The notes beneath the pieces are model-generated. The model did not search any database, was not told the origin of the DNA, and saw nothing but the letters and a program-made list of their open reading frames with translations. Below are positions 5,873 to 57,601 of a stretch of 64,000 bases of DNA, piece by piece (positions within the stretch are counted from its first letter, which is position 1; every line of letters begins with the position of its first letter). The translations under genes were made by a program, and so were the position numbers. The DNA is from Candidatus Uhrbacteria bacterium (GTDB lineage Bacteria; Patescibacteriota; Patescibacteriia; GWA2-47-26), in the NCBI GenBank assembly GCA_016187515.1, contig JACPJN010000009.1, positions 132,891 to 196,890 of the forward strand, read 5' to 3'.

Positions 5873-7100
5873 AATCTCTTAAGAGTTTAGCCACTCCCAG
5901 CGCGGTTCCATCGTCTGTGATTTGCCGGCGCACGTTGACTCCCGATACCTTCGCTTGTATGGAAACCATGCGGACATCACGCGTAATACCGCCGTCAATC
6001 ACCAGCGTACGCGGACGAATTGGCAGCTTTTTTAAATATCCATCCACATCTTTGGCAATATACGTGAGCGCCCTATCCAATTTATTGACATCATGTAAGA
6101 CCTTGTCTATTGCGGACCCGCTTCCTTCAATTTTTGCCTCCAGCGCGAATTGTGGACGCCGCGCGCCGGGCATAAGGGTGGTAAAAAACGGCTGCCTCAA
6201 CACATACTTCGACCCTAGTGATTGCACCAAAAACGTTCCTGTGCCATAAGTGACTTTGGTAGTACCTGGACTAACCCCTACTCCATACATACTGGCTTGC
6301 TGATCGCCGCATACCGCACGCACCGGCAAACGTGCGCCAACCACCTCATGGCGCAAAACACCGAATTTTGACTGTGATGGGCGCACTTCCGGCAGTATCG
6401 CGCGCGGCACACCAAATATCTCGAGCAACTCATCATCCCACTTTAAAGTACGGATATTATACAAAAGCGTGCGCGAAGCATTAGTCCAGTCAGTCAAATG
6501 CGGCCGGCCTTCAAGCAGATTCCATAAGATCCAAGTGTCCACGGTGCCGAAAAATAGTTCACCACCCCTAACCCCTCCTCGGCGAGGAGGGGAAACGATT
6601 CGCTTTCCTCCCCTGCCCGAGGGTAGGATTAAGGAGGGGTGGGAGCGATTGCTAACCACATTCCTTAAAATCCACCCCACCTTTGTCGCGGAAAAATACG
6701 GATCAATAGCCAGTCCGGTTTTACCGCGCACCTCGTCGCTAAGAGACGGACGCCGTCTCTTAGCGACGGCACACTCTTTCGCGGTCCTTTTATCTTCCCA
6801 AACAATCGCGGGATAAATCGGTTTTCCGGTTTTGCGATTCCACACGATTGCGGTTTCTCGCTGATTGGTAAGACCGAAGGCGCGCAGTGATTTTAGCGGA
6901 ACTCGGCTTGCCCGCACTGCAGTGCGCAGCACTTGTTTGCTGACTGCCAGGAGCTCGGAGGGCGATTGCTCAACGAATCCCGGCTTTGGATGCGTTTTTC
7001 TAATACGCGCATACGCGCGTCCCACAATTTCAATACTCTGCGAAAAAACCAAGGCCTTAATTCCGGTTGTACCTACGTCAAGCACCAAATAATATCTCAT
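5853..7100 (-). CDS. FGGY-family carbohydrate kinase (glycerol kinase-like) with in-frame GC-rich insert
   Basis: N-terminal YYLVLDVGTTGIKALVF, then TNQRETAIVWN and GTVDTWILWNL, all typical of GlpK/FGGY. The insert encodes SGRGGKRIVSPPRRGGVRGG. Confidence 0.7.
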   Translation of the reverse strand: MRYYLVLDVGTTGIKALVFSQSIEIVGRAYARIRKTHPKPGFVEQSPSELLAVSKQVLRTAVRASRVPLKSLRAFGLTNQRETAIVWNRKTGKPIYPAIVWEDKRTAKECAVAKRRRPSLSDEVRGKTGLAIDPYFSATKVGWILRNVVSNRSHPSLILPSGRGGKRIVSPPRRGGVRGGELFFGTVDTWILWNLLEGRPHLTDWTNASRTLLYNIRTLKWDDELLEIFGVPRAILPEVRPSQSKFGVLRHEVVGARLPVRAVCGDQQASMYGVGVSPGTTKVTYGTGTFLVQSLGSKYVLRQPFFTTLMPGARRPQFALEAKIEGSGSAIDKVLHDVNKLDRALTYIAKDVDGYLKKLPIRPRTLVIDGGITRDVRMVSIQAKVSGVNVRRQITDDGTALGVAKLLRDYETRNS

Positions 7101-8200
7101 AGCGCAGTATCGGCAAAAAATTTCTTAATCTCCTTGCAGGGGTCGGCGCCGCGGTATAACACGCGACACACCAGATTAAGCAGCGGCGCTTTTACTTTTT
7201 TGCGGCGCGCCAAATCGAAAAAAACTTTCGTGGCGGCAACGCCTTCATGAGTTTGACTGCTTTTCTGCCATACAAATTTGCAATGCCCTTCTTTACAAAT
7301 ACGCTCGCCCAAGGCGCGATTGCGGCCATCGCCTAACCCCGTAACCACCAAATCCCCCACCCCGGCCAATCCGTGGACCGTAATCGCTTTACCGCCAAGC
7401 GCCACAACCACCTGTTCCATCTCGGCAACCGCCAGAGTAAACATAAACGCCTTCATATTCATCGGCAAACCAATTTCGTGATATTTCGTGTCCGACCATC
7501 GGTATCCTTTCGTGGTCTTTCGTGTATAACCATCGCACATCCCGAGCGCGATCGCATAAACATTTTTAAGCCCTCCGCATATACCCACCCCTTTCCAGTC
7601 CGCGGAAACCGCCACCTTAAATGTGGAGGAGGTAAAGACATCGCGCACTAATTCACGCGCTTTCTTGTCCTGACTTGCCGCGACTACCGCGGTCGGTACA
7701 CCGCGGACCAATTCCTTGGCAATGGACGGCCCGGAAATAGTAACCACCCTACGACGCAGCGCCGCGGGCAATTCCGATTGCACAACTTCGTGCATGGTAA
7801 GATTAGTCTTGGCTTCCAATCCCTTTACGACATGCGCAATTACCAACCTCCGCCCCTCACCCTCCCCTCTCCCACGGGGAGAGGGTGGCCGTAGGCCGGG
7901 TGAGGGAATTAGGCACTGTGCCAACTTCCGCACCGTCTGGCGCACATACGGCGACGCGCACGCCACGATCACTAGTGCGGCGTTTTCCACCGCCCGTTCC
8001 ATGCTCGCCTCCGGCACAATATTCTTGGATAATTTCACTCCTGGTAAAAATCGTTCATTCTTTCCAGTTCGTGCGATTACCTCGACAGTTCGTGATTCAT
8101 AATCCCAAAGCGCGGCGCGATGTCCGCGCAACGCTAAAATCTGCGCCAGCGCGGTTCCCATATTTCCGGCGCCTAAAACCGTGGTATTTATTTTTGCCAT
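7097..8200 (-). CDS. gpsA: NAD(P)H-dependent glycerol-3-phosphate dehydrogenase with in-frame palindromic insert
   Basis: Rossmann motif TVLGAGNMGTALAQIL and a GpsA-like C-terminal domain. Insert encodes SPGLRPPSPRGRGEGEGRR. Confidence 0.85.
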   Translation of the reverse strand: MAKINTTVLGAGNMGTALAQILALRGHRAALWDYESRTVEVIARTGKNERFLPGVKLSKNIVPEASMERAVENAALVIVACASPYVRQTVRKLAQCLIPSPGLRPPSPRGRGEGEGRRLVIAHVVKGLEAKTNLTMHEVVQSELPAALRRRVVTISGPSIAKELVRGVPTAVVAASQDKKARELVRDVFTSSTFKVAVSADWKGVGICGGLKNVYAIALGMCDGYTRKTTKGYRWSDTKYHEIGLPMNMKAFMFTLAVAEMEQVVVALGGKAITVHGLAGVGDLVVTGLGDGRNRALGERICKEGHCKFVWQKSSQTHEGVAATKVFFDLARRKKVKAPLLNLVCRVLYRGADPCKEIKKFFADTAL

Positions 8201-10062: not shown

Positions 10063-10209
10063 ATTAGGAATTAGGTGAATTAGGTGAATTAGGTGAATTA
10101 GGTGAATTAGGTGAATTAGGTGAATTAGGTGAATTTGTCATTCCCCGCCCGTATCACAATCTCAATCAATCCAATTTTAGGAATTAGGTGAATTAGGTGA
10201 ATTAGAAAT
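10063..10209. repeat. Tandem 9-nt repeat (gaattaggt) x about 7, then a second block of about 2.5 units
   Basis: Direct read; lies immediately upstream of the csoR start. Confidence 0.9.
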
Positions 10210-12951: not shown

Positions 12952-13593
12952 CTATTCAAACACAATCCGAATTACATGATCCTTTGCCTCCGGTGTGTAC
13001 TGACCCACGTATTCCCGGAACTCCATATTTGCCTCACCGTTGACAAACATCTTCACCTGTCCAGGTTTTCCCGGCGTACACTCATCGCCATTTTTCTTAT
13101 CCATAATCCGATCGCGATCAAAGGAAATCCGATGCTTATCAAAGAAACGACCGAGTGTAATATCTTCTTTTTGAAGAATGCGCCCCTCAATGTGCCAGGT
13201 GTTATCGCCATGATGGTGATAAAGAGGAATGCCTACCATCTGCCCGCTTTTTGATCCAGGCAAATCGCGCTTCTCACCACATACGTCAATATCAATCTTG
13301 GCATGCCAATGCACCGGTTTATCCGTATAGGTCGTCGCGGCCGGAGTCGGGCCATTCGACGAGGTTGGCTTTGCGCTATAAATCACGGCGCCCACCACAC
13401 CGATACCCAACACTAAACTAATGACATGCCAGGCGTGAATCCGCCGCACTTTCGGCGCGCGCTCGCGCGCTTGTTCTGTTTTTTTAAGTAAACGTCGCTG
13501 TCGTCGCGTCATTGGTTGTTGATCCATATTTATTAGGCATTGTTGATTACAATTTGACTTCGATAATATCGCCGTCCTTAAATACATAGTCAA
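12952..13593 (-). CDS. Hypothetical membrane-anchored protein with His-rich segment (LYHHHGDNTWH)
   Basis: ORF only. Confidence 0.35.
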   Translation of the reverse strand: MTMYLRTAILSKSNCNQQCLINMDQQPMTRRQRRLLKKTEQARERAPKVRRIHAWHVISLVLGIGVVGAVIYSAKPTSSNGPTPAATTYTDKPVHWHAKIDIDVCGEKRDLPGSKSGQMVGIPLYHHHGDNTWHIEGRILQKEDITLGRFFDKHRISFDRDRIMDKKNGDECTPGKPGQVKMFVNGEANMEFREYVGQYTPEAKDHVIRIVFE

Positions 13594-14596
13594 GGCCTTG
13601 TACTGGTGATGCTCCGCCCACTACCACTTTAATGTGTTTCGGATCGTAAGTCAATCCCATACTGTCAAACCAAAACTTTAGCGGTACGCCAGTGGCATGC
13701 ATGTGCAAACGATTAAAGTTTGGTCCTTCCACATGGAGGAAACTTGAGCTTTTGCCATCATCATTGCCTCCCATACGATGCCCATACGGGGTAAGATCAA
13801 GTTCCTTGCCATTCTGAAGTACATGAAACTCTGCATGAATATGCGCTGACTGCAACAGCCCGATTTTTGCATCCGGATCCATGGTACACTCCATCATACC
13901 ACTTTCAATGCATTGATCAATGGCCATCCCGCACGCATCGCACGCTCCGTCGCCGTTTTTATCCATGAGTTCTTTGGCCTGGGCAATGTCGAAAAGGGTG
14001 AATTTCATCTGGCTCGTAACCCCCCTGTCCCCCCTTACCCTAAGTGGGGAATCGCTTTCGTCTCCTCCCCTTAAGATAAGGGGAGGTTGGGAGGGGTTAT
14101 GAGTCGCGAAAAACAGTCCCACCACCGCCACCACTCCCACCAACCCTCCCGCCACCTTCTTCCCCTGCTCCACAAAATCCACCACCCACCCGGTTTCCAC
14201 GCGTTTCACGATCAAATCTTTCAGATACCATCCAAGCACGCCCAGCACCAGCACTAATCCCACTGTTCGCGCGCCGGCAACCCACTCGCCGGCAAATGGC
14301 AATCCCGCCAGTAAAAGTCCGGCATTTCCAAACACGCCGCGTGTGGTAATGCAGCGCATCCTCATCCCCGCACGAATAAAAAGCAGCACACCAAATAATA
14401 CCACTGCCGCGATCCACAATGGCCACTGAAAACGATTTAAAAACAAAAGCGGCATGCCTTGGAGCGCAATGCCAAAAGTGGCTACGAGCGCGATAAGCGA
14501 AGTGCAGACATTATGACAAATCTGCCATGAACCTAAAATTGAGGCACAACCCGAGATTTTACTTCCGCGAGAGAACCAATTTGTTGAAATCTTCAT
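13547..14596 (-). CDS. Hypothetical membrane protein with in-frame palindromic insert (SPLRVRGDRGVT) and Cys-rich C-terminal domain
   Basis: Start trimmed to MKISTNWF at 14596; the track ORF extends upstream across a palindromic element and the trxB 3' end. Confidence 0.4.
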   Translation of the reverse strand: MKISTNWFSRGSKISGCASILGSWQICHNVCTSLIALVATFGIALQGMPLLFLNRFQWPLWIAAVVLFGVLLFIRAGMRMRCITTRGVFGNAGLLLAGLPFAGEWVAGARTVGLVLVLGVLGWYLKDLIVKRVETGWVVDFVEQGKKVAGGLVGVVAVVGLFFATHNPSQPPLILRGGDESDSPLRVRGDRGVTSQMKFTLFDIAQAKELMDKNGDGACDACGMAIDQCIESGMMECTMDPDAKIGLLQSAHIHAEFHVLQNGKELDLTPYGHRMGGNDDGKSSSFLHVEGPNFNRLHMHATGVPLKFWFDSMGLTYDPKHIKVVVGGASPVQGLDYVFKDGDIIEVKL

Positions 14597-14666
14597 AGCA
14601 ATATAGCGACTTGCGCAAAAAGTTCCATACTTGTGCTCCCAAGGCGCATCAGCCCACGGCTGAGAA

Positions 14667-15692
14667 CTATGGAACTTTTTTCTTATTTCTTGGGGGTATA
14701 GATTTAGGCGCGATAATCGGCAACGCATGCACCTCGCAGGCCATTCCACCGTGAACTCCCAGATCTTGATACGCCGAGGTGGCCGCCATCGCGCCTTGCG
14801 CGGCCGCAATAATATCCTGACGGAATGGCCCGGCGCCGTCGGTAATATCTCCTGCCGCGAATATGCCATCCACATTGGTTTTCATAAATTTATCCACATG
14901 GATATATCCTTTCTCGTCTAATTCCACCCCAAGTTTTTTTGCCATCTCATTGTTTGGCAACGCACCGATCTGCACGAATAAACCGCCTGCCTTGAGAACA
15001 TCCGACTCTTTATACGGCTTAGAAAGCCGCACACCTTCAAATTTGTCCGTGCCTAAAATTTCTTTTATCGCGGTGTTGTACAAAATTTCCGCCTTTCCGG
15101 TCTTTACGAGATTGGTCTCAAACCGATCCCAATTCACCGGCTCTGCGGTAATTTTGCCACCACGCACAATGAAATAAATCTTTGTCACGTATTCACCTGC
15201 CAGATTTGCGCCTTTCACGGAAGAATCGCCGCCGCCAACAATAATAATCTCTTTGCCTTTGTAAAGCGGCGCATCACAAGTCGTACAATACGAAATTCCG
15301 CGGCCGGTCAGTTCTTTTTCCTTGGGTAATCCCAGCCGCCGATGCCGCGCGCCCAGCGCGAAACAAATCGTCCGCGATAAAAGATGCGTGCCGTCCGTAA
15401 GTAGGAGATCAAAACAATGCTTTTGTCGAAGTACATCAATGACTTCTCCATCGCGCAGCTCCACACCGGTGGAGACCGCGTGATCTTCCATCTTTTGAAT
15501 AAGCTCATAGCCATCAATGCTCTTGAACCCCGGATAATTTTCAACTGTGGCCGCAATCGCGGTCTCCCCTCCGGGATCCTTGCCGCGCACCACCACGGTT
15601 TTCATCTTATATCGCTCAGCATAAATCCCGGCCGAAAGTCCGGCCGCCCCGCCGCCGATGATTGCGAAATCATACAATTTATCATCCGCCAT
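14667..15692 (-). CDS. trxB: Thioredoxin-disulfide reductase
   Basis: FAD motif DFAIIGGGAAGLSAG; redox CTTCD; NADPH motif IIIVGGGDS. Confidence 0.9.
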   Translation of the reverse strand: MADDKLYDFAIIGGGAAGLSAGIYAERYKMKTVVVRGKDPGGETAIAATVENYPGFKSIDGYELIQKMEDHAVSTGVELRDGEVIDVLRQKHCFDLLLTDGTHLLSRTICFALGARHRRLGLPKEKELTGRGISYCTTCDAPLYKGKEIIIVGGGDSSVKGANLAGEYVTKIYFIVRGGKITAEPVNWDRFETNLVKTGKAEILYNTAIKEILGTDKFEGVRLSKPYKESDVLKAGGLFVQIGALPNNEMAKKLGVELDEKGYIHVDKFMKTNVDGIFAAGDITDGAGPFRQDIIAAAQGAMAATSAYQDLGVHGGMACEVHALPIIAPKSIPPRNKKKVP

Positions 15693-18768: not shown

Positions 18769-19632
18769 CTACAGCCTTGGTTGCGGAAGAAATTGATTGA
18801 GATTCGCCTGAAAATAACGGTCCACTCCCAGCCACAAGGCGATTGCCCAGATCACGAGAATAATTCCGCCAACTTGTCGAATACGCGCCGAGGCGCGCGC
18901 AAATCCCTTGATGCGCAGCGTAAGCGCCCGGCCGCCGTAGCCGATTAAGAGCATGGGCACAGCCGCGCCAAGGCCGTAGGTGAAAAATAGCAAGCCGCTT
19001 TGGAATACATTCTGTGTATTTGCGGCAAAGGTGAGAATCGCGCCAAGAATCGGACCGGCGCACGGGGTCCACACCACGCCAAGGGTTGACCCAATTCCAA
19101 ACCCGCCCCAGAAGCCGTTGCCCCCTCCCCTCGCCCCTCCCACAGGTGGAGGGGAAATGTGGGATTGTTTTCCTCCCCTGATGGGAGGAAAATTTTCAAT
19201 TGTTTCCTCCCCCCTTGTGGGGGAGGATGAAGGAGGGGGGTTGCAACACGATCCACGCGCACTGATTTTCCTCCACACAAATGTCCCCCTCACCACCATC
19301 CACTCCCACAGCGCCGGCACGGCCAACGCCACCCCGAATAAAAACAAGAGCACAATAGAGGCCACGCGCAGCGTGCCTTTGGAAATTCCCAGTACATCCA
19401 GAAAAATCGCAAACGCCGTGCCAAAAATGGTAAACGTCACCACGAGTCCAGCCACAATTCCAAGCGGCCGCCACTTACTTGTGCCCAAAGAACCGCCCAA
19501 AATCGCCGGAAGCACCGGCAAAAGGCAAGGCGCGGCAACGGTCAGCACCCCGGCGGCAAAAGAAAGAGGGAGAAGAGAAAACACAAAATGACAATTTCTA
19601 ATTGACCTAATTGCTCTAATTATTCTAAACAA
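18769..19632 (-). CDS. CcdA/DsbD-family transmembrane thiol-disulfide transporter carrying a ~46-aa in-frame GC-rich insert
   Basis: AAPCLLPVLP and VWTPCAGPILG match CcdA Cys motifs. Insert encodes CCNPPPSSSPTRGEE...GGARGGGNGFWGG. Confidence 0.65.
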   Translation of the reverse strand: MFRIIRAIRSIRNCHFVFSLLPLSFAAGVLTVAAPCLLPVLPAILGGSLGTSKWRPLGIVAGLVVTFTIFGTAFAIFLDVLGISKGTLRVASIVLLFLFGVALAVPALWEWMVVRGTFVWRKISARGSCCNPPPSSSPTRGEETIENFPPIRGGKQSHISPPPVGGARGGGNGFWGGFGIGSTLGVVWTPCAGPILGAILTFAANTQNVFQSGLLFFTYGLGAAVPMLLIGYGGRALTLRIKGFARASARIRQVGGIILVIWAIALWLGVDRYFQANLNQFLPQPRL

Positions 19633-19750
19633 ATCTCAATTCCCAATAACCAATTTTGGGATTTTGCGCCTCAGGCGCATCCGCCTTGGGCGTGAGGTGC
19701 TTGGACATTTCTTAGGTCAATTAGGATAATTAGGTTAATTAGGTTAATTT
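19601..19750. repeat. AT-rich degenerate repeats (ctaattg / aattagg units, inverted arrangement)
   Basis: Direct read; promoter region of the ccdA-like gene. Confidence 0.7.
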
Positions 19751-21106: not shown

Positions 21107-21230
21107 GCACCAAATTACAAGGAAATCCTAATCTCCAAATCACAAATTACAATTATTTGTAATTTGGAATTTGTGGTTTGGTATTTGTTTGTTTTTTGGG
21201 ATTTGTGATTTGTGATTTCTCAATTAGCAC
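21101..21230. repeat. AT-rich inverted/tandem repeats (caaattaca / tgtaatttg, tttgtgatttgtgattt)
   Basis: Direct read. Confidence 0.7.
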
Positions 21231-23761: not shown

Positions 23762-24580
23762 TCAAGTGATGTCGTGCTGATGCTCTCCCCAAGAGCAAAA
23801 TCCGCACTGACTATGATGCGCCGGCGACTGATCGCTCTGCAGTAGTCGAGCGGCGTTTTCGAATAATTGCCGAGCGCGCTTTATACTGGTTTCCATCCGT
23901 TTGGGCGTTATTTCAAACTGCACGACTCCATTCTCGCGCACTTCAATCGGGTGATAATACACTAACCATCCCACTCCTTTGGTTTTATAACCATTCTCGT
24001 GCAAAAGCCACTCGTAAATATCTAACTGGTGCTGATAAAATCCGGAAGAATCCTCTTTTGGCGCGTACCCGCGGGTTTTGTAATCAAGCGGTACGTAATA
24101 GCGTGCCAAATTCCTTTTACTGCTCCCCTCTCCCCCGTGTGGGAGAGGGCTAGGGTGAGGGGATTCAGTAACCACCAAACAATCATCCAAAAGTCCGATG
24201 AGTTTCGTGTTGAGTTTTTTATCAAAATAGCGCAGACCACCAGTGCGCGCGCGCCAGCCATTCAGTAATTTCTGGTCAGCGAGCAGCTTCCCCTCCACTT
24301 TTCCGCGGATTTCCGGCGGTAACCCTTCCTTTGTTCCGCGAAACTTATCAAAGTAAGTTTTTATAACACCATCCATTCCTCCCGGAAGTGAAGGGAAAAT
24401 GGTTTTTGGACGATGCACGCCCATTTTAAGCTGTAACCAAAAACACCGCGGACATTCTTTAAAAAGCGAGAGCGTGGAGGCGGAAAGCTGGATAAATCGT
24501 CCAACCTCACGGTCATTGCGAGGAGCTTTCATTGCTCCGCCAAGCGGTAACCTTCCATTCGTTCCCATAGGGTTATTCAT
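23762..24580 (-). CDS. PD-(D/E)XK nuclease superfamily protein with Cys cluster (Cas4/RecB-like fold), carries in-frame palindromic insert
   Basis: N-terminal CPRCFW; LLDDCLVV...VPLDYK fits D...ExK; C-terminal CGFCSW. Insert encodes SPHPSPLPHGGEGSS. Confidence 0.5.
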   Translation of the reverse strand: MNNPMGTNGRLPLGGAMKAPRNDREVGRFIQLSASTLSLFKECPRCFWLQLKMGVHRPKTIFPSLPGGMDGVIKTYFDKFRGTKEGLPPEIRGKVEGKLLADQKLLNGWRARTGGLRYFDKKLNTKLIGLLDDCLVVTESPHPSPLPHGGEGSSKRNLARYYVPLDYKTRGYAPKEDSSGFYQHQLDIYEWLLHENGYKTKGVGWLVYYHPIEVRENGVVQFEITPKRMETSIKRARQLFENAARLLQSDQSPAHHSQCGFCSWGEHQHDIT

Positions 24581-24900: not shown

Positions 24901-26103
24901 CTATTGCGTAGGTATATACTGCCATGGATTAAGCCACTGGTCAAGTTCTGTTTTTGATTTCACATATCCACGAAGATCCAGACGCGTACCTTTATGAATT
25001 CCGAAGTGCAGGTGTTTGCGCTCGCCATCGGTCTCGCTCGTGCCACCCGCACCCAACACACCAATTATGTCACCGGGCGCAACATATTCACCTACGCCCT
25101 CTTTCTCCCCCTCCTGGAAAGGGCTCTCCCCTTTTTTCTCCCCCTCTCCCCTTGTGGGAGAGGGCGGGGGTGAGGGGTCAATTTTCAAATGCCCATACAC
25201 CACCGTAACCGCTTGATCACCGAGCACGCACTCCTGCACTACTACTCCCCCATAGCCATCCGCAGTGCGTTTTTCACGGATCGTCCCACCACAGAACGCG
25301 CGCACCTCCACGTCCCGATCCTTTTCTTCATCCGACACTTCAAAATCCACCGCAGTATGGTAACCGGAAAAACGTTCGGGCTGCACCGGAGAATTTTCTG
25401 GAGCAACTTTCAGTCCAAACGGCTTTTTGGTAACGCGCGCGGCGGCACGATCGATCGGCGCACTGAAACTCACGCGATCATTGTGGAATTGAATGCTTTG
25501 GAAAAATTTTTCAAACTCCTCTTTGGGGAGATCTGGATTGCGTCCGAACACGTAAAATACGCCCGGACTGTTCTTTGCGAAGCGCACATCCGTAACCTCA
25601 TGAGTTTCATTTCGCCAGGACGGCTGATATGGAAAATCCGCTACCCCTTTTTTCTTACGAATCGTGTAGCGCACGGCAGCGTGTCCCTGCGCTTCCAACT
25701 GTGCGCGCTCCAAAATATCCACGGTACGCAGGGTAAGAAAATCGCTCGCCTCAAAATAACGGATAAAAATCTGGGAAAGCTCCCGCGCGGGCATTGCCGC
25801 CTGCACCGGTCCATAGATATTCAGCGCTTCAATCTCCGGCACATATTCCGCCTGCCATGTACTCGGAAGCTCGGCGGAAAATCGAAACACCGGATTAAAC
25901 TCCGAAAAATCTACTCGAATTAAAGCAGACGATTGTTCTCGTGTCGCTTCTTCACTCTCCGGCAATTGTCCCAAATTCTCACGGCCGTGAGAATTTGGGA
26001 CAATTAGAACTGGGGTTGTAGTGGTTTTCCCTTGCTCTTGTGGCTGCCCCGCACAGCCAGACCCGAGCAAAATAATGACTATAAAAAGTAAAATAAATCT
26101 CAT
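24901..26103 (-). CDS. M23-family metallopeptidase lipoprotein with in-frame GC-rich insert
   Basis: Lipobox GSGCAG; M23 HxH (HLHFGIH). Insert encodes SPPPSPTRGEGEKKGESPFQEGEKEGVGE. Confidence 0.8.
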   Translation of the reverse strand: MRFILLFIVIILLGSGCAGQPQEQGKTTTTPVLIVPNSHGRENLGQLPESEEATREQSSALIRVDFSEFNPVFRFSAELPSTWQAEYVPEIEALNIYGPVQAAMPARELSQIFIRYFEASDFLTLRTVDILERAQLEAQGHAAVRYTIRKKKGVADFPYQPSWRNETHEVTDVRFAKNSPGVFYVFGRNPDLPKEEFEKFFQSIQFHNDRVSFSAPIDRAAARVTKKPFGLKVAPENSPVQPERFSGYHTAVDFEVSDEEKDRDVEVRAFCGGTIREKRTADGYGGVVVQECVLGDQAVTVVYGHLKIDPSPPPSPTRGEGEKKGESPFQEGEKEGVGEYVAPGDIIGVLGAGGTSETDGERKHLHFGIHKGTRLDLRGYVKSKTELDQWLNPWQYIPTQ

Positions 26104-26779: not shown

Positions 26780-26900
26780 CAGTCCCCTCCCCTTAGATTA
26801 AGTGGGGTTGGGTGGGGTTACGCCTGACCGCTTGCCTGCTTGTCCGCCTCTGGCGGGCCTTTGGCACGGCCTCTGGAGGGAAACGGAGAACAGAACTTAT
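26780..26900. repeat. GC-rich mosaic palindromic element, intergenic
   Basis: cccctccccttagattaagtggggttgggtgggg plus gtccgcctctggcggg, shared with the 29290-29320 element. Confidence 0.7.
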
Positions 26901-27784
26901 ATCAATGGCACCGTATCGGAAATATCCTGCTGATTGGGAAATTCCGTTCTCAACCGTTCAATATCGGCTGGATTCATGGTCCATCCGACTGCTCCGAGAT
27001 TTTCCTTCAAATGCTCAATCGCGGTCGTCTTGGCCAGCGTCACAATACCCGGCTGTGAAATAAGCCAATTAATTGCGATTTGTGCGGGCGTCTTGCCATA
27101 CTTAATACACATTTCGTCAAGCACTGGAGTACCCGGCTTGGTGAGCGCCCCTTTCTCAACCGGACGCCAGGCAATAAACATAATGTCGTGTGCCTGACAA
27201 TATTGAATTAACCCCTTTCGCTCCGGCTCTCGGAATATCAAATTATAGTGAACTTGATTGGCGACAATTTTATTTTTAGTATATGATTGGGCCTCTTCAA
27301 TACGCTCTTTACTAAAATTACTAACCCCGATGTGGCGGATCAAGCCAGAATCTAAAAGCGTATCCAACGCCCGCATGGTTTCCCGAATTGGAATCTCGGG
27401 ATTCGGCGCGTGGATAAGATACAAATCCAAATATGCTGTCCCCAATCGCTCCCGGCTCGCGCGTGCCGCCTTTATCACGTCATCATAGCGCAAATGTTCG
27501 TCAGATACTTTAGAGACAATAAAGAGATTACCGCGGTCCTGGCCCTTAATTGCCTCACCCGCAAGGCGCTCCGCATGCCCGTCCGCGTAACTTTCCGCAG
27601 TATCAATATGAGTTACTCCCCAATCTATCGCGACACGAATCGCCGCGATATCAGCCGCATCGTTATTTTCCGGATTACGCTCAAATCGCCCGCCCATTTG
27701 CCAGGTCCCAATTCCAAACACCGGCATTTCAAAACCACTCTTTAATTTTTTTGTCGGTATTGTCATATTGAATCTATTCTCCAA
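26897..27784 (-). CDS. Aldo/keto reductase
   Basis: GIGTWQMGG, IDTAESYADGHAE and IGVSNFS are AKR signatures. Confidence 0.85.
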   Translation of the reverse strand: MENRFNMTIPTKKLKSGFEMPVFGIGTWQMGGRFERNPENNDAADIAAIRVAIDWGVTHIDTAESYADGHAERLAGEAIKGQDRGNLFIVSKVSDEHLRYDDVIKAARASRERLGTAYLDLYLIHAPNPEIPIRETMRALDTLLDSGLIRHIGVSNFSKERIEEAQSYTKNKIVANQVHYNLIFREPERKGLIQYCQAHDIMFIAWRPVEKGALTKPGTPVLDEMCIKYGKTPAQIAINWLISQPGIVTLAKTTAIEHLKENLGAVGWTMNPADIERLRTEFPNQQDISDTVPLI

Positions 27785-28459: not shown

Positions 28460-28469
28460 ATCTGTAAAA

Positions 28470-28539
28470 TTCCGGGGCTTGGATTCGAACCAAGATAGCC
28501 AGGACCAAAACCTGGAGTCCTACCATTAGACGACCCCGG
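28470..28539 (-). tRNA. tRNA-Gln(TTG), CCA not encoded
   Basis: Reverse complement TCCGGGGTCGTCTAATGGTAGGACTCCAGGTTTTGGTCCTGG...GGTTCGAATCCAAGCCCCGGAA. Anticodon loop TTTTGGT. Confidence 0.8.
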
Positions 28540-28610
28540 AATTTTATAGACAACAAATAGACATTTGCCTTGCTGATAATATCATAGTTTATCGGATTTG
28601 TATATGCCAC

Positions 28611-28745
28611 GAGCGACAACCACTCCTTCTCCCACCCCCTCTAACTCCCCCTCGGGCAGGGGGAGAAACCTCCTTGAAAAGGAGGGGGGACTTTTTAATT
28701 TCCCCTCCTCTTTGAGGAGGGGTTAGGGGTGGTGAGAGAGTTCTT
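28611..28745. repeat. GC-rich mosaic palindromic element (ccaccccctctaactccccctcgggcagggggagaaacctcc; cccctcctctttgaggagggg)
   Basis: Direct read; a related copy sits at 29228-29290. Confidence 0.75.
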
Positions 28746-29094
28746 TGATAATCCCGGCGATTACCTCGCCAACATTCTCACATACATCATTGTCGGTAAA
28801 TCGAAGCACGCGAATTCCTTGGGCTTCAATGAACTTCTGCCGTTGTGCATCCCGCCGCTTCGCTCCCTCCTGATAATGACTATCCCCATCCAGCTCGACG
28901 ACCAATTTTACCCTGGGACAATAAAAATCGACCACATGAGGGCCGATTCCTTGCTGCCGACGAAATTTATACCCTTCCACATTACTCCCTCGCAGATAGT
29001 ACCAGAGAATTTTCTCACTCCGTGTCATTCGACTACGAAGTTTTTGACGCGTGGATTTTTGTGCGTTCGGGTTAAACAATTTTACCATAACCAC
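28723..29094 (-). CDS. DUF559 (Vsr-like) endonuclease-domain protein
   Basis: GYKFRRQQGIGPHVVDFYCPRVKLVVELDGDSH...RDAQRQKFIEAQGIRVLRF matches the DUF559 pattern. Confidence 0.75.
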   Translation of the reverse strand: MVMVKLFNPNAQKSTRQKLRSRMTRSEKILWYYLRGSNVEGYKFRRQQGIGPHVVDFYCPRVKLVVELDGDSHYQEGAKRRDAQRQKFIEAQGIRVLRFTDNDVCENVGEVIAGIIKELSHHP

Positions 29095-29330
29095 CCCTTA
29101 ATCCCCTCCTTGGAAAGGAGGGGAAATCTTAACCACCCCTTAATCCCCTCCTTGGAAAGGAGGGGAAATCTTAACCACCCCTTAATCCCCTCCTTGGAAA
29201 GGAGGGGAAATCTTAACCGCCCCTTCTCCCACCCCCTCTAACTCCCCCTCGCCTGCCCGCCTCTGGAGGGGGCAGGGGGAGAAACCTCCTTGCCTGTCCG
29301 CCTCTGGCGGGGAAAGGAGGGGAAATCAAA
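29095..29330. repeat. Three tandem copies of a 42-bp hairpin unit (cttaaccaccccttaatcccctccttggaaaggaggggaaat), then a GC-rich palindromic segment
   Basis: Direct read. Confidence 0.85.
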
Positions 29331-30240
29331 CGCGCAAGTAGCGCCGCACCGCGAAAAAGCTGGAAAGGGCGGTTAGGAAAAAAATGCCGACGAATTGCGC
29401 TCCGAAGATAAAGATCGCGTTGGCGCTGTAATAGCCGATCAGCGAAAGCGAGACATTTTCAAACAGCCGGTCAAAATGCGGCTGGACAAAATAAAGTCCA
29501 AGATAGACCACGGCGGCGGTCAAGATCGTCGCCGCAAATGAAAACAGCAAGGCCTCGAACAAAAATGGCCCCCGCACAAACCAACTGGACGCGCCAACCA
29601 AACGCATAATGCGGATCTCGCCGCGATGCGTATAGACCGCCACGCGCACCGTATTAATCACGACCAAGATCGCGATCACCCCGAATACTCCGGCCACGCC
29701 CAAACCAAACGAACGGATATTGCGCATCAGGGTGTTTATTCTGCTGATTACCAAGCGATGATCCTCAAAATTTTTCTCCTCAATAATCTCTTTGTACTCG
29801 GGGGCCTCAAGAAATTCAATAATCTTTGGGTACTGTTCCGGGTCGTGCGCGGAAACAGCCAGCGTTGCTCCAAAAGGATTTTCACCGAGTTCCTGCAGTG
29901 ATTCTGAAATTACCGGATCGTCTTTGTGCCGCTCCTTAAAACGCGCCAGCGCCCCTTCTTTGGGAATATAAGCGACTTCTTTTACTTCACTGCGCTTAAG
30001 CAGGGTATTGCGCACCTGTTCCACCTCTTCATTGGACACCTCGGGCTTGAAATACACGCTGACATCAATCTTGTCTTGTACCACCGTTACCGCCGCCTGC
30101 GAGACCGCGCCAAGGGCCACGACCAGGTTAACGGTTAAAAGCGAAAGGATGAGCAAGGTAATCGTCGCGATCGAAAGCCAAAGATTCCGGTGGAATTGCT
30201 GAAGTGAAAGTCGAACCACGCGGGCAAATGATAGAAACAT
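29326..30240 (-). CDS. ftsX: Cell-division permease FtsX
   Basis: N-terminal TM, periplasmic loop and three C-terminal TM helices (FtsX topology); ftsE is adjacent. Confidence 0.8.
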   Translation of the reverse strand: MFLSFARVVRLSLQQFHRNLWLSIATITLLILSLLTVNLVVALGAVSQAAVTVVQDKIDVSVYFKPEVSNEEVEQVRNTLLKRSEVKEVAYIPKEGALARFKERHKDDPVISESLQELGENPFGATLAVSAHDPEQYPKIIEFLEAPEYKEIIEEKNFEDHRLVISRINTLMRNIRSFGLGVAGVFGVIAILVVINTVRVAVYTHRGEIRIMRLVGASSWFVRGPFLFEALLFSFAATILTAAVVYLGLYFVQPHFDRLFENVSLSLIGYYSANAIFIFGAQFVGIFFLTALSSFFAVRRYLRV

Positions 30241-31034: not shown

Positions 31035-31829
31035 TCAATTTATGCTCTCCACCTTAACGCTCACCACCCCCACTTTCGGATTGGCCAAGTGTTCAAATGC
31101 GGCCCGATCCAGATCAATCACCCGCTCCGGGTGCTTTAGCCGGTCCGGGCCAAAATCATTAACCTTCACGACTACGGATTTACCGTTATCCACATTGGTT
31201 ACTTTCAACCGCGCGCCTGGAGGATAGTCCGGGGAAGCGGCACAATGGCAGTTCTTATATTTATACCAGCTCGCGAGCCCTTTTTCAAGTACCTGATTGT
31301 GGGAAAATACCGCTAAATAAGTCGTCCCTGTGGAAATCTCCGCCCGCAAGCGGTTTTTATCCGCAACGCTTTGCGAAGGAATATCCCGCCAGACATTATC
31401 ATCACCCCAGACCCGCAGGATTTTTTTTCCTAACGCTTCGCTAGGATAGCGAATTTCAACCGGCAGAGTTACCCCGGCGTTTCCCTTGATCACCAGACGA
31501 TACATGGGGGTAATCCGATGGACTTCCCCCAGGTTTAAATAGTACTCCGAGGCAAAAGTCGCGATCTCCACGCGGCTGCCGCCTAGAAGCGCTCCGGGCA
31601 TTATCCCGATTTTGACTCGCTCTCCCAGATTGCCCAACGTTATCCCTTTAACCGCCGTATCACTGTCAATCGTCCAGGCCTTTTGCTCCACCCCGATTGC
31701 CAATACTTGGGCCTGGGCGGAAGGAATGAAGAATGGAGAATGCAGAGAAAGAAAGAGCATGAAAAATGAAGCGTGAAGAATGAAGAATCTTGAACGATTG
31801 GTATTCATAATTCTTAATTCTACATTCAT
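31035..31829 (-). CDS. RlpA-like double-psi beta-barrel lipoprotein (septal lytic transglycosylase family)
   Basis: C-terminal GLASWYKYKNCHCAASPDYPPGARLKVTNVDNGKSVVVKVNDFGP fits the DPBB fold. Confidence 0.65.
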   Translation of the reverse strand: MNVELRIMNTNRSRFFILHASFFMLFLSLHSPFFIPSAQAQVLAIGVEQKAWTIDSDTAVKGITLGNLGERVKIGIMPGALLGGSRVEIATFASEYYLNLGEVHRITPMYRLVIKGNAGVTLPVEIRYPSEALGKKILRVWGDDNVWRDIPSQSVADKNRLRAEISTGTTYLAVFSHNQVLEKGLASWYKYKNCHCAASPDYPPGARLKVTNVDNGKSVVVKVNDFGPDRLKHPERVIDLDRAAFEHLANPKVGVVSVKVESIN

Positions 31830-36619: not shown

Positions 36620-36625
36620 ATAACT

Positions 36626-36686
36626 TAGAGTTTAGAGTTTAGAGTTTAGAGTTTAGAGTTTAGAGTTTAGAGTTTAGAGTTTAGAT
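36626..36686. repeat. Tandem 8-nt repeat (agagttta) x about 8
   Basis: Direct read; between the coiled-coil gene start and the GT4 gene end. Confidence 0.9.
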
Positions 36687-49373: not shown

Positions 49374-50978
49374 TTATTGAGTTATTACCGGCAGTTCCTC
49401 CGCGGCCACCTCCTCTGCCGTCGTCTCTTCAAGCTGCTCCGCCGCTTCGGTCTGCGCCGCGGATTCTGGCGCGGGCGCTGGCTCCACTACTGGCGCGGGT
49501 TCCACCGGTACCGGCGTTTCCACTGCTGGCCCGGCTTCCTCCCCCTCTCCCTCGGCGGGAGAGGGCGGGGGTGAGGGGGCGCTGACACTATCCCCCTCTC
49601 CCCCGGCGGGAGAGGGTTGGGGTGAGGGGGCACTTGCCTCGCTTGATTTACTTGCTTCACTTGATTCACTGCTGCCACGCGGGGTCCCGCACGCGCCGGG
49701 CCGCACCACTACTCCGCCATTGCGCAGCGACACGCATGAAGGCGAACCGGTTACCTCATCATGCAGTGTAATCCCGGTCGGCCGCTCCGGACTTCCCACC
49801 GTCAAATCCCGCACTTGCAGCTGGCCATCTTGCGAAATACTCCAAACCCCGGAAATTCCGGCAATGCGTCCGACCTCAAGGATCGCGTAGCCATTCATGT
49901 TCAGATTATGCTCCGCCACCGTTATCAAACCGTCGGATCCTTGACTGGCGGTCAACTCATCCGGGCCATGCCAGTAGAAATTATTGACCAACATCATAAT
50001 CTGGCCATTTCCGCTCTCCCAATTTTCAAGCGCGATACCGATAACCTTCCCTGAACGCGCGGTCTTCATCGCATGACCCGCCAATGACGAGCTTACCAAA
50101 TAATCACCAACGCCAATCGCGCCGTTTTCATCGGTAACTTTGACCGGCACGCGCCCGGAAAGAGCGACGGGCAAAGGATGACGGCCCTGTTTTTGTATAT
50201 CACCGCCAATGGTCTGGACCGGTGATCCGGAAATCACGCCGAATATCTTCGCGCTATATGATTCTTGGGACTTCCCGAGTATGGCAATGGTCTCTCGTCC
50301 ATTTTCCTCGGCAATAAGACCGGTAAACGGATCAACTCTCGTGGCCTCATACGTAAAATAGGCATCGGTCAGCGCCACCACGTCCCCCACCTCTACATTT
50401 TGTTCGGTTTCATACCATTCCGCAAGGTCGCCGGCGCCATTATTGCAAGCCACGAGCGCTTCGGTCGTATCGGAAGCCGCGTCAAGATCAGATCCGGAAT
50501 GACATACCCCATTGGTGGTCGCGGTTGAATTAAAATTCACCGACGTTATTCCGGCCGGTGTTACGGTAAACTTGCTGTTATTCACGTTAATCGCGTTATC
50601 CCAACCGCTGCTGATAAACAGACCGGATGAACTCACCGTACCGGTTCCGGCTTCCGTCATACTGCCAACACTAATACCGGTGGCGATGAGATTATTGGTG
50701 GTGGAAGTGGCCGTGATATTGGCGATATTTAGAACAGTATTCGTGCTGTTGTTGGTGGTGGAGGCAAAAGTGGCATTGAGGTTTAAGAGGTTAGAACCAG
50801 TAGCGCCTTCCGCCGTAATCAGGGTAATGTTGAGCGCGTCCACATTGGCAGTGGCGGTGGTGTCGCCCGAGCCGATCGTGACCAGATCAGCTGTCGGGGT
50901 CGCATCGCCATCCAGATTAATGGTTTGTCCGTCAATAATGGCCTCACGCCTCCCGAGGCCAAAAACAGATCGCCCCAC
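49374..50978 (-). CDS. C-terminal part of a giant repetitive Thr/Ser/Gly-rich surface protein (frame-disrupted); contains two in-frame GC-rich hairpin inserts
   Basis: Repeats LNITLITAEGATGSNLLNLNATFASTT; inserts encode SAPSPQPSPAGGEGDS and SAPSPPPSPAEGEGEE. Confidence 0.45.
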   Translation of the reverse strand: MGRSVFGLGRREAIIDGQTINLDGDATPTADLVTIGSGDTTATANVDALNITLITAEGATGSNLLNLNATFASTTNNSTNTVLNIANITATSTTNNLIATGISVGSMTEAGTGTVSSSGLFISSGWDNAINVNNSKFTVTPAGITSVNFNSTATTNGVCHSGSDLDAASDTTEALVACNNGAGDLAEWYETEQNVEVGDVVALTDAYFTYEATRVDPFTGLIAEENGRETIAILGKSQESYSAKIFGVISGSPVQTIGGDIQKQGRHPLPVALSGRVPVKVTDENGAIGVGDYLVSSSLAGHAMKTARSGKVIGIALENWESGNGQIMMLVNNFYWHGPDELTASQGSDGLITVAEHNLNMNGYAILEVGRIAGISGVWSISQDGQLQVRDLTVGSPERPTGITLHDEVTGSPSCVSLRNGGVVVRPGACGTPRGSSESSEASKSSEASAPSPQPSPAGGEGDSVSAPSPPPSPAEGEGEEAGPAVETPVPVEPAPVVEPAPAPESAAQTEAAEQLEETTAEEVAAEELPVITQ

Positions 50979-56257: not shown

Positions 56258-57601
56258 CTATTTTCGCAGTTCTTGCTCAATATCTTCCGCCTTATCCACC
56301 ACCAAATTCGCGTAATAATTGCAAATACTGCGCGAACAGTTGGGACTGCCCCCGATATAAGCCCGGGAGGCCCTCATCTCCCCTTCTCGGGTTTTGCTCG
56401 ACGCTCCGCCGCGGGCCAGTTTAAGCGCCGCTGCCGTAAAAGCATCTTCAATATTCCAAGGATCCGGCGGATTATGCCCGGTCAGCCGCGCCACTTCCCC
56501 TTCATAAGCCATCCAAGTGTTGGGTAAAAACTGCGCCGGACCCATGGCCCCGCCCCAACCATAAGAGGGCGCGCGGGAGACCGGGGTGGTATCCGGATCG
56601 CGCCCGAGTTTGGCGGTAATCGCCTTAAAGGCCTCGTGATCGCGCGGATGCATATCCTTTTTCCAGTTCCCTTTCCCCACGTTCAGTCCCAAACGCGACT
56701 CCACCTCTAAGACGGCGATCAAAAATGAAGTGCGCACCCCGGCCCGAATCGCCGCGAGCTCTCCAAAACGCACCGCCTCTTCCGCGGAAATGCCGGCCTG
56801 CTGCAAATAAGTAATCTGCTCCTTAATCTTATCCAAATCCTGTTTTTTGGTGGCAATCGTGCCAATCAGTTTGCCTTTTTCCTTCTCAATTTGAGCGAGC
56901 AGCTTGGTCTGCTGGCCCTTGCGCTTGGCCACGGTTTCCTTCTGGGATTCCTCAATCCGCTTTAAGCGTTCCTGGGCTTGTTTTTCCTCCACAATTTCAT
57001 CGCGAATCTGTTCTAACTCGCCCTTTGTCTCTTTAAGGCCGCCTAATACATCTTTCAGTCCGACGTGCAGCTGCTCCAGCTCGCTTAACGCCAAAAACAT
57101 TTCGGAGAGGCGCTGCGCCTCCGCGAAACGCAAGAGCAGCGGGGCTTCCTCCCGCGCGCGCAAAAAACGCAGCGAGGCGCCCAGCCGGTCCCGGGCGGCC
57201 TGCAGCTTGTCCGTGACCTCGCCAATCTTGGCTTCGGTCTGCTTAAGCTTATAGCCGGACTGCTCAATCGCCAGTTTCAGACCGCGAATTTCCAATTCGC
57301 TTTGGGCGATTTTTGCCTTCAGAATTTCTATGTCATTCTGGACCGAGGCGCCCTTATTTTTCCGTTCATCCACTTGCTTCCAGTATTCCGAGATTTGATT
57401 TTCGATCTCCGCGATCTGCTGCTGCCTCGTTTCAATCAACTGCGCAATATCCGCCGGGGTCTCGGCACGCGCCGGCAAAGGCGCGACAAACGTCGCGACT
57501 ATGGGAATAATGAATAATGAATAATGAATTAGGGGATTGAATCGTCGTTTCAGCCAACTCAACCCATAATTCCTAATTCTTAATTCCTGATTCCTATTCA
57601 T
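56258..57601 (-). CDS. Lytic murein transglycosylase (MltB/Slt-like catalytic domain) with N-terminal coiled-coil
   Basis: C-terminal YGWGGAMGPAQFLPNTW matches the MltB-type motif; long coiled-coil; signal peptide. Confidence 0.65.
   Translation of the reverse strand: MNRNQELRIRNYGLSWLKRRFNPLIHYSLFIIPIVATFVAPLPARAETPADIAQLIETRQQQIAEIENQISEYWKQVDERKNKGASVQNDIEILKAKIAQSELEIRGLKLAIEQSGYKLKQTEAKIGEVTDKLQAARDRLGASLRFLRAREEAPLLLRFAEAQRLSEMFLALSELEQLHVGLKDVLGGLKETKGELEQIRDEIVEEKQAQERLKRIEESQKETVAKRKGQQTKLLAQIEKEKGKLIGTIATKKQDLDKIKEQITYLQQAGISAEEAVRFGELAAIRAGVRTSFLIAVLEVESRLGLNVGKGNWKKDMHPRDHEAFKAITAKLGRDPDTTPVSRAPSYGWGGAMGPAQFLPNTWMAYEGEVARLTGHNPPDPWNIEDAFTAAALKLARGGASSKTREGEMRASRAYIGGSPNCSRSICNYYANLVVDKAEDIEQELRK

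Follow-up and report, generated by a model that had tools for sequence, protein, structure and literature searches.

We examined a 64,000-nucleotide stretch of a Candidatus Uhrbacteria (Patescibacteria) genome, called the window below, and within it a ~715 bp block at positions 28611–29325 that contains a gene for a DUF559 endonuclease domain. Terminal inverted repeats frame the DUF559 gene, overlapping both its start and its stop codon. Judged from their sequence, these repeats are already known: they are members of a published class of intrastrand triplex motifs (BoxC/PIT/TM), and their association with DUF559 genes, traced through loci from many phyla, goes far beyond chance. We lean, though not strongly, toward reading the locus as a selfish cassette, composed of a DUF559 nuclease gene and inverted triplex motifs, that inserted between ftsX and tRNA-Gln.

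The DUF559 gene and its inverted triplex motifs

The gene order on the minus strand is ftsE, ftsX, the block, tRNA-Gln(UUG), a DedA/VTT protein, an aldo/keto reductase, and Sua5. Two host genes form the edges of the block: ftsX upstream (29326–30240, minus strand; Pfam FtsX_ECD and FtsX) and tRNA-Gln(UUG) downstream (28469–28541, minus strand; ttg in ARAGORN; 60.3 bits to the Rfam tRNA model). Promoter-like −10/−35 sites of tRNA-Gln are kept at 28576–28610, at the edge of the block. Read in gene orientation, ftsX is followed by hairpin B with an insert, motif A with an insert, three copies of a 5′ motif, and the DUF559 gene, and then by a 3′ motif, hairpin B′, another motif A, and the tRNA promoter with tRNA-Gln.

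An initial annotation of this DNA, made from the sequence alone, had proposed comparison with syntenic loci lacking the DUF559 gene. We assembled the three closest available relatives as FtsX homologues with their contigs (L089, with a 77% identical FtsX; L087 and L088, 71%; L085 and L086, 73%) and found the block absent from their ftsX/tRNA-Gln site. In L085–L089, tRNA-Gln(ttg) lies 4–100 bp after ftsX, and neither DUF559 nor a CCCCTCC module was found between the two genes; L087–L089 have only an ordinary terminator-like hairpin there. Since ftsX and tRNA-Gln are adjacent in the relatives, the ~715 bp at 28611–29325 represent extra DNA, and the comparison indicates that the block is an insertion relative to these genomes.

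The DUF559 gene, recognized as such in the initial annotation, occupies 28723–29088 (minus strand) and encodes 121 amino acids from an ATG at 29088, with an alternative GTG at 29094. Its product matches Pfam PF04480 (DUF559) over profile positions 3–108 of 109 (E=1.9e-33; 115 bits against a cut-off of 20.6), and only DUF559 and related restriction endonuclease (REase)-fold families were matched in the Pfam scan. The protein is 100% identical to P0001, an ‘endonuclease domain-containing protein’ of Candidatus Uhrbacteria at NCBI that is encoded on a 202-kb contig, and scores 76.5 bits against the NCBIfam YcjD equivalog PRK09767, under the equivalog cut-off of 218. DUF559 is a very widespread domain of unknown function with a solved structure and no known substrate. 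The sole match in a PDB sequence search was 3hrl (E=6e-29), a DUF559 structural-genomics entry for which we know of no functional study.

A Foldseek search with an AlphaFold model of the protein (pLDDT 84, pTM 0.78) returned 3hrl first (E=1e-7) and then the catalytic domain of I-Bth0305I (probability 1.00, TM 0.61/0.74), with further matches to AbaSI/PvuRts1I, Vsr (probability 0.93), and TnsA. Residues E65, D67, H71, D80, and D54 are invariant in the alignment columns of 14 homologues, and E65, D67, H71, and D80 may correspond to the EDxHD catalytic motif of the I-Bth0305I family. The model supports a Vsr-like/EDxHD PD-(D/E)XK nuclease fold, for which Mg-dependent DNA nicking or cleavage would be the expected activity. 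The protein is not Vsr proper: it shares the fold and a distant sequence similarity, scores 17.6 bits against the TIGR00632 vsr model (cut-off 97.85), and has no dcm-type methyltransferase neighbor in any context examined (ftsX, tRNA-Gln, and DedA here; glycosyltransferase or SecA elsewhere).

The start and stop codons of the gene sit within inverted copies of a 35–42-nt module. Upstream, three copies of the 5′ triplex motif form the left terminal inverted repeat (29086–29225, minus strand; nhmmer E ~1e-12 per copy). The initial annotation had noted three tandem 42-bp copies at 29095–29220; Tandem Repeats Finder (TRF) places the array at 29088–29225 (period 42, 3.3 copies, 98% matches, score 269), and the three copies are 100/100/98% identical over 54 nt. 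The motif is built as AGATTTCCCCTCCTT-TCC-AAGGAGGGG-ATTAA-GGGGTGGTTA, and the array folds as three independent hairpins (−31.2 kcal/mol, z=−3.8; hairpin energies throughout are from ViennaRNA, which models the hairpin part only). The gene-proximal copy leads directly into the ATG (GGGGTGGTTATG). Downstream, the 3′ triplex motif (28696–28738, plus strand; nhmmer E=8e-11) is built as TTTCCCCTCCTC-TTT-GAGGAGGGG-TTA-GGGGTGGTG; its DNA hairpin folds at −9.9 kcal/mol (z=−3.35), and its tail overlaps the final codons (SHHP) and stop of the gene (CACCACCCCTAA). Because 28696–28738 is an inverted copy of the 42-bp unit, it serves as the right terminal inverted repeat and the gene is bracketed. Neither this inverted copy nor the mirror block that follows the hairpins, described below, was part of the initial annotation.

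ARAGORN also called an 83-nt tRNA-Gly(tcc) at 29111–29193 (minus strand), which we rejected as an artefact spanning two tandem hairpins of the 42-bp array; the Rfam tRNA covariance model gave no match there even at E≤1. Such a false tRNA-Gly could contaminate automatic annotation. The only known RNA family found in the Rfam search was tRNA-Gln, with microRNA and small RNA matches that fall far under gathering scores and reflect hairpins only.

A ~70-bp composite flanks the cassette as a direct repeat. On the tRNA side, its first half is motif A copy 1 (28618–28668, minus strand; nhmmer 28629–28668, E=4e-6; strict scan 28634–28665), which reads CTCCCCCT-GCCC-GAGGGGGAG-TTA-GAGGGGGT, then GGGAGAAGGAGTGGTT on the minus strand, and its second half is hairpin B′ (28669–28689; CCTCCTT-GAAA-AGGAGGGG, without a mirror tail), identified by repeat search and alignment. 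By alignment, 28618–28687 recurs directly at 29215–29322, and the copy on the ftsX side is that on the tRNA side with two 19-nt inserts added. The inserts (29251–29269 and 29293–29311) are related to each other and are placed exactly in the loops of two adjacent hairpins: the mini-hairpin GCCTGCCCGCCTCTGGAGG lies within loop 1 of motif A copy 2 (29215–29285, minus strand; assigned by alignment and nested fold), and CCTGTCCGCCTCTGGCGGG lies within the loop of hairpin B copy 2 (29285–29325; assigned by alignment), with which the block stops at the ftsX stop codon. The nested hairpin B copy 2 folds at −12.3 kcal/mol (z=−4.1), with 0/200 shuffles as good.

The initial annotation had also pointed to a motif recurring at 26840–26870. 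We found TGTCCGCCTCTGGCGGG at 26841–26857 and 29295–29311, with a 2-mismatch copy at 29254–29270. The small CCGCC-TCT-GGCGG-type hairpins downstream of the aldo/keto reductase gene (26837–26890, plus strand; repeats and pattern matches) belong to the same family as the two loop inserts. All of the elements first listed for this locus were thus recovered, at the stated positions or a few bases away. The block has just one stem-plus-T-run, which lies on the strand opposite to the genes, and we rejected a classical terminator role for the modules on that ground.

Mini-hairpins of the CCGCC type were observed in other settings as well. Strings of CCGCC-NNN-GGCGG mini-hairpins follow tRNA genes, as after tRNA-Gln in L087 (4860–4925) and L085. 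In different genomes they are nested in the loops of triplex motifs and never in the arms (e.g., L004 15520–15555 and 18300–18335), and a mini-hairpin in the second motif loop is also found in L006, L008, L016, and L026.

The initial annotation had treated the modules as mere hairpins, a description that does not hold: each triplex motif carries a third, mirror-repeat block, as in the BoxC/PIT/TM class. Every triplex-type module consists of a C-arm, a loop, a G-arm, a short spacer (TTA, ATTAA), and a second G-rich block that is the mirror image of the G-arm (e.g., GGAGGGG-ATTAA-GGGGTGG; GGAGAGGG-TTG-GGGTGAGG; GGGGAGGG-TTAG-GGGAGGGG). We examined all C-arm/loop/G-arm hairpins ≤300 nt from DUF559 genes, accepting A facing A or T, and found a perfect mirror tail in 120 of the 145 with a G-rich tail, compared to 23 of 145 in a direct-repeat control. 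The mirror rule is kept over at least eight asymmetric arm types; AGGAGGGG, for example, goes with GGGG[AT]GGT in 32/32 cases. To judge from these sequences, compensatory changes have preserved the motif architecture in different lineages, and the module design is that of an intramolecular purine-motif triplex with G*G.C, A*A.T, and T*A.T triads. A G-hairpin or quadruplex would be an alternative fold of the motif DNA.

Triplex motifs of the BoxC/PIT/TM type have been known in Escherichia coli since the 1990s and number in the thousands across bacteria; intrastrand triplex motifs were reportedly also described by Hoyne and Maher in 2000. E. coli has 23 TMECO loci, and Salmonella is reported to lack TMECO. 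Under a strict definition – a pyrimidine stem, a purine stem, and a second purine stem, with stems of 6–15 nt, short loops, and ≤1 mismatch (PMC4666352) – our scan identified 16 motifs in the window, and these represent at least six arm types. Five are at the DUF559 locus, at 28634–28665, at 28702–28734, and starting at 29090, 29132, and 29174. The layout is the same as in the published motifs: a C-rich stem, a 3–6-nt loop, a G-rich stem, a 3-nt loop (often TTA), and a mirrored G-rich stem. The published PIT/TM pattern is CCCTCNCCC N3-6 GGGNGAGGG N3 GGGNGAGGG (Holder et al., NAR 2015, PMC4666352), whereas the copies that flank DUF559 have CCCCTCC/GGAGGGG arms in place of CCCTCNCCC and do not match the TMECO pattern; copies that do match it lie elsewhere in the window (24126, 25142, 49543, 49594, and 7854). 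The motifs here also differ from published ones in occurring in Patescibacteria and many phyla, and in frame inside genes.

Published triplex motifs are dispersed, often as inverted pairs, abundant in Enterobacteria and Cyanobacteria, and linked to local rearrangement. Holder et al. counted 3610 copies in 262 proteobacterial genomes and noted their abundance in cyanobacteria, described inverted ‘palindromic’ pairs and raised local rearrangement at motif loci, and demonstrated triplex formation in vitro for TMECO only (PMC4666352). According to the same authors, no function is known for the motifs, and mobility-related genes were never found nearby (PMC4666352). The initial annotation's alternative of a recombination hotspot matches this literature (PMC4666352).

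DUF559 genes and triplex motifs in other genomes

The initial annotation had allowed for purely local duplication, in which case the elements would be confined to this locus and missing beside other DUF559 genes. We found instead that the flanks recur around homologues. Genes at 60–71% identity lie beside a glycosyltransferase (L001/L002) or SecA (L004), where the same 5′-type and 3′-type modules abut the start codon and encode the C-terminal tail. With homologues in these and other surroundings, the adjacency to tRNA-Gln(ttg) at 28469–28541 that the initial annotation had emphasized is real but probably incidental. The 5′-type consensus (TTTCCCCTCCTTTCGAAGGAGGGGATTAAGGGGTGGTTATG) and the 3′-type consensus (TTCCCCTCCTCnnnnGAGGAGGGGTTAGGGGTGGTG, as reverse complement) stay distinct across homologues. 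The C-terminal sequence TTPNPSSxRRG, common to many homologous proteins, is the 3′ module translated in another frame, and in the homologue P0017 a module is inserted inside the DUF559 open reading frame (ORF).

We scanned a genome collection with the DUF559 alignment and analyzed the best 80 loci from 545 relatives. The analyzed loci come from Patescibacteria, Bacteroidota, Ignavibacteria, Nitrospinota, Cyanobacteria, Gammaproteobacteria (including Vibrio and Aliivibrio), Planctomycetes, Chloroflexota, and others. Flanks were scored by local alignment of the upstream flank with the reverse complement of the downstream flank, using a threshold of ≥30. This threshold was reached by 42 of 77 DUF559 genes (55%) versus 3 of 307 other ORFs in the same loci (1%; Fisher p=4e-31). 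A strict motif lies ≤200 nt from a gene end in 70 of 83 loci, and on both sides in 36; motif density at gene ends is 3.62 per kb, 72-fold higher than the 0.050 per kb of the remaining sequence of the loci. Comparison of these loci indicates that gene and inverted motifs form a unit found repeatedly in different phyla and in unrelated contexts.

Nearly identical units were also found at different sites of one genome. On a single Nitrospinales chromosome, two loci at a distance of 1.6 Mb (L029 and L033) share a 492-bp stretch of 98% identity that comprises only the gene and its immediate flanks. L046, which belongs to another genome and has different surroundings, matches at 95% identity over 483 bp. 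L029 contains in addition a fragment made of the gene's 3′ end and a motif.

Gene-less mini versions and solo motifs were found as well, some of them in frame inside genes. In one gene-less version (L004, 10600–10690) the 5′ module is followed by ATGAAAAACTCC and the 3′ module; the same 20 kb of L004 hold further mini copies, some with CCGCC-type hairpins in the second loop. The mini copies keep the ATG and the last codons. As a side observation, gene-less mini-elements of L004 (10560–10720, 14250–14460, 15460–15650, and 18240–18420) lie directly upstream of apparently paralogous genes, with products that begin MSEK..LE, MSES.., or MPEK.. and with the G-arm positioned like a ribosome-binding site. 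These mini-elements were either co-duplicated with the genes or supply their translation signals.

Within the window, a gene-less CCCCTCC-type doublet (6560–6642), a 3′-type followed by a 5′-type copy (nhmmer E=3.5e-10 and 2.3e-7), lies in frame within a glycerol-kinase-like gene. The insert corresponds to residues 151–182, and the FGGY_N domain is 26 residues longer than its profile.

More broadly, we observed in-frame motif copies in genes for this glycerol-kinase-like FGGY protein, GpsA, an M23 peptidase, a PDDEXK_1 protein, and a DsbD-like protein. The sites are in the minus-strand genes 5853–7100 (residues 151–182), 7097–8200 (residues 102–119), 24901–26103 (residues 307–337), 23762–24580 (residues 136–154), and 18769–19632 (residues 130–178), and in ORFs 49374–50978 and 13547–14875. 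They add 15–45 residues rich in P/S/G/E/R (e.g., KIDPSPPPSPTRGEGEKKGESPFQEGEKEGV), and Pfam domains are lengthened accordingly. These copies resemble Rickettsia palindromic elements (RPEs), which are short structured repeats inserted in frame in protein-coding genes; E. coli BIMEs are intergenic mosaics of several repeat modules of varying order and orientation. The sequences and structures of RPEs and BIMEs differ from those of the modules here, and neither is known to be associated with a DUF559 gene.

We also searched in the reverse direction, using the exact 5′-type pattern against metagenomes. This search gave 85 matches in 80 loci, 16 of which carry DUF559, with the motif at the gene in ~14. 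Since most exact copies have no DUF559 downstream, we rejected a role of the 5′ module as a leader private to the gene.

In E. coli K-12, ycjD belongs to the DUF559 genes. Its product terminates in ...SPSP and a stop codon (CCCTCTCCCTGA), then a degenerate G-arm, and a canonical TMECO (CCCTCGCCC-CTCTG-GGGAGAGGG-TTA-GGGTGAGGG) lies ~170 bp downstream, with no other in the 10 kb that we inspected. Of 5426 complete E. coli genomes, 3377 have the ycjD region, and the others carry eefRABCD at the same sapF-fabI site. For phylogroups A, B1, and C, and separately for sequence types ST69 and ST182, ycjD has been noted ‘in place of’ eef (PMC12817139). In E. coli genomes that lack ycjD, the eef-fabI junction showed no motif. 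We also observed a partial duplicate of the last ~45 nt of ycjD between the gene and the TMECO (L090, 5203–5420).

DUF559 genes lie within clusters of triplex-type modules on plasmid pAQ6 of Picosynechococcus PCC 7002 and in Synechocystis sp. B12. The pAQ6 gene (L212, 1290–2130) sits amid at least six CCCCC/GGGGG triplex-type modules and adjoins a DUF1156 gene. On the Synechocystis sp. B12 plasmid (L213, 813–3306), DUF559 and motifs are just downstream of a short DUF1156-annotated ORF, which may be truncated; the next ORF is unannotated.

In the literature on DUF559, PF04480, YcjD, and repeats or RAYT that is accessible without subscription, we found no paper tying DUF559 to repeats, and the link between DUF559 and triplex motifs appears to be unreported. 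It contradicts the published statement that no mobility-type gene accompanies triplex motifs: the published motifs come with no reported enzyme or mobility gene, whereas the motifs here bracket a nuclease gene.

Other repeats and insertions in the window and in related genomes

The aldo/keto reductase gene (26897–27784) lies between DedA and Sua5 in the window and is not so placed in L085/L086. A degenerate triplex motif (26783–26830) and small hairpins sit 3′ of this gene, and 26783–26890 may be a second variable spot made of the same modules as the DUF559 block.

Many intergenic tandem arrays of AT-rich 7–9-nt units are present in the window and are perfect or near-perfect (e.g., GAATTAGGT x7.6 and TTAGAGT x8.7). 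They include arrays at 10068–10135, 10181–10205, 19712–19749, 21155–21218, 31724–31788, 36625–36685, and 57505–57529, among others, and are reminiscent of cyanobacterial heptamer repeats.

Insertions of other kinds were seen in the genomes used for comparison. In an Uhrbacteria relative (L085 8300–8660; L086 8341–8700), a GIY-YIG nuclease gene adjoins tRNA-Gln(CUG), and the 5′ half of the tRNA gene is duplicated across the GIY-YIG gene, the pattern that a homing-type insertion into a tRNA gene would be expected to leave. Small genes for 23S_rRNA_IVP, a four-helix-bundle protein, are inserted between conserved genes that otherwise adjoin (ftsE/ftsX; ClpB/glycosyltransferase) at L087 3345–3722, L088 5578–5955, and L001 8409–8786. 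The copy in L087 is flanked by AT-rich inverted repeats, AATTTCCAATACCCAAT and ATTGGGGATTGGTAATTGGAAATT, that look like the flanks of a mobile element.

Mechanism, alternatives, and implications

The initial annotation had suggested a nuclease-associated selfish cassette. The empty ftsX/tRNA-Gln site in relatives and the inverted flanks elsewhere speak for this suggestion; the mobility of the unit and the action of the nuclease are what we infer. We propose that the nuclease would recognize folded or palindromic motif DNA and nick or cut it, with the tail-to-tail junction of a motif doublet, where GGGGTGGT meets ACCACCCC, as a candidate target. Recombinational repair from a gene-carrying copy, with the ~40-bp motifs as homology arms, would then spread the gene among dispersed motifs in a process resembling homing. 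The same breaks could drive local instability, of which the 42-bp triplication, the duplicated composite, and the loop inserts would be products. DUF559 would stand to triplex motifs as RAYT stands to REP elements.

The likeness to REP/REPIN-RAYT systems (PMC3479197, PMC3733652) is one of organization. In both, one small nuclease gene lies between inverted copies of a short structured repeat that is otherwise dispersed, solo or as a doublet, and that has a lineage-specific sequence and a conserved architecture; most of these DUF559 genes have motifs, and most motifs have no gene. The components differ, however. RAYT is a HUH/Y1 single-strand transposase of the IS200/IS605 type, whereas DUF559 here is a predicted PD-(D/E)XK Vsr-like nuclease, and REPs are plain hairpins with a GTAG or CGTC tag, whereas these are three-block triplex motifs with neither tag at the hairpin foot. 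With no HUH/Y1 transposase and no tag, we rejected membership in the REP-RAYT family; the partnership is, by analogy, of the REP-RAYT or homing-endonuclease type and made from different parts.

After 3hrl, the closest characterized structural neighbor of the DUF559 protein is the EDxHD homing endonuclease I-Bth0305I, which cuts a pseudopalindromic site as a dimer and belongs to a family with free-standing members (PMC3239194). I-Bth0305I has N-terminal NUMOD/HTH DNA-binding domains, occurs in phage introns and inteins, and is associated with a host-gene target, whereas the DUF559 protein is a bare 121-amino-acid domain, chromosomal, and associated with repeats. The presence/absence pattern at a conserved site that characterizes homing genes was observed both here (L085–L089 empty) and for ycjD (3377/5426). 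As for insertion sequences and miniature inverted-repeat transposable elements, terminal inverted repeats are present, and the only flanking direct repeat is the ~70-bp composite, too long for a classical target-site duplication.

A broader claim is that stand-alone DUF559 proteins, including E. coli YcjD, are cognate structure-specific nucleases of the BoxC/PIT/TM motifs, which are present in hundreds of bacterial genomes; these PD-(D/E)XK enzymes would recognize and cut a folded triplex or hairpin module and thereby mobilize both their own gene and gene-less repeats. We regard this extension as tentative and, for now, rather doubtful.

Several observations weigh against the selfish-cassette reading. 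To our knowledge, nuclease activity or a target has been demonstrated for no stand-alone DUF559 protein, and the cassette contains no DDE, HUH, or serine/tyrosine recombinase or transposase. The orientation of motifs relative to the gene is a preference and no rule, and motif copies are solo in 64 of the 80 metagenome loci. The ends of the element are fuzzy, similarity stopping at different points in L029, L033, and L046; varying end points fit recombination-based copying better than clean cut-and-paste, and fit passive spread as well. Covariation between nuclease and arm sequence is weak (51.0% versus 49.1% identity, 8/2000 permutations). Given this small effect, we rejected a strong co-specificity, and recognition, if any, is probably of architecture rather than arm sequence.

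The comparative evidence has counterpoints too. The relatives with an empty site are distant, and deletion in them could account for the pattern. Their site holds no motif doublet, so simple homing into a pre-existing doublet fails to explain this insertion. In a spread sample of 60 E. coli genomes, TMECO-like matches average 18.5 per genome with ycjD (n=37) and 7.5 without (n=23; Mann-Whitney p=1.5e-9), a correlation that is confounded by phylogroup and only suggestive. Genomes without ycjD still hold 1–18 copies, implying that the nuclease is not needed for the motifs to persist. Finally, Holder et al. did not detect stable triplexes in vivo by footprinting (PMC4666352).

Some of these observations would be expected if the motifs were autonomous recombination-prone repeats and DUF559 a host-serving repair nuclease for triplex/hairpin structures or their mismatches, with the gene found near motifs because motif recombination moves small genes or because proximity to the substrate is advantageous. 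Most motif copies are solo and persist in E. coli without ycjD, E. coli motif loci are hypervariable and have no mobility genes near them (PMC4666352), and VsrA, a DUF559 protein of Caulobacter, acts like a chromosomal endonuclease linked to DNA damage (PMC12907096). We nonetheless consider this explanation unlikely. It does not lead one to expect start and stop codons embedded in inverted motifs with almost no spacer, 5′-type and 3′-type ends that stay distinct across homologues, 98% identical gene-plus-flank units at distant sites, or mini copies that keep the ATG and last codons, and other small genes in the same loci lack such flanks. Embedded codons, distinct ends, distant identical units, and mini copies are hallmarks of a unit moving as a whole.

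The modules could instead be cis-regulatory, the 5′ hairpin sequestering a GGAGG ribosome-binding sequence and so limiting translation of a toxic nuclease, the 3′ hairpin stabilizing or terminating the transcript, and the resemblance between modules arising from shared constraints. The G-arm AAGGAGGGG and the tail GGGGTGG do lie 4–20 nt before the ATG, and a 3′-type module of L004 lies 10–15 nt upstream of the start codons of other genes, like a ribosome-binding site. We find this account improbable, since 71 of 78 exact 5′-type matches with enough flank have no DUF559 downstream and modules also occur inside ORFs. A simple hairpin switch would have no use for the mirror third block, which nevertheless covaries over eight or more arm types. 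No T-run terminator follows the modules on the gene strand, and PIT elements showed neither promoter nor terminator activity (PMC4666352).

An orphan restriction or defense nuclease in a variable intergenic spot, with repeats that are unrelated local duplications, is very improbable: the protein has weak matches to the nuclease domains of DpdF and a methyl-directed REase, and cyanobacterial plasmids have DUF559 near DUF1156, PIN, and VapC genes, but no defense-system model was matched as a whole, no partner methylase or defense neighborhood was found in the window or L001–L004, the repeats recur around homologues in many phyla, and few plasmid records (41 of 72,556) or phage records (2) contain the gene, a rarity that also led us to reject plasmid or phage cargo.

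Returning to the selfish-cassette reading, the link across phyla gives each partner a candidate counterpart: a substrate for the nuclease and an enzyme for the repeat. E. coli, with ycjD and the TMECO next to it, allows a direct test of the question. A real link would make the unit a new class of minimal selfish element, ~450 bp in size, and would account for one origin of genome instability, and of peptides inserted in frame, in reduced genomes like those of the Candidate Phyla Radiation. If stand-alone DUF559 proteins do prove to be the cognate nucleases of the motifs, they would constitute a second partnership of the REP-RAYT kind – of independent origin and based on another enzyme fold and on triplex-forming DNA – that spans Patescibacteria to Enterobacteria and is able to insert in frame into proteins.

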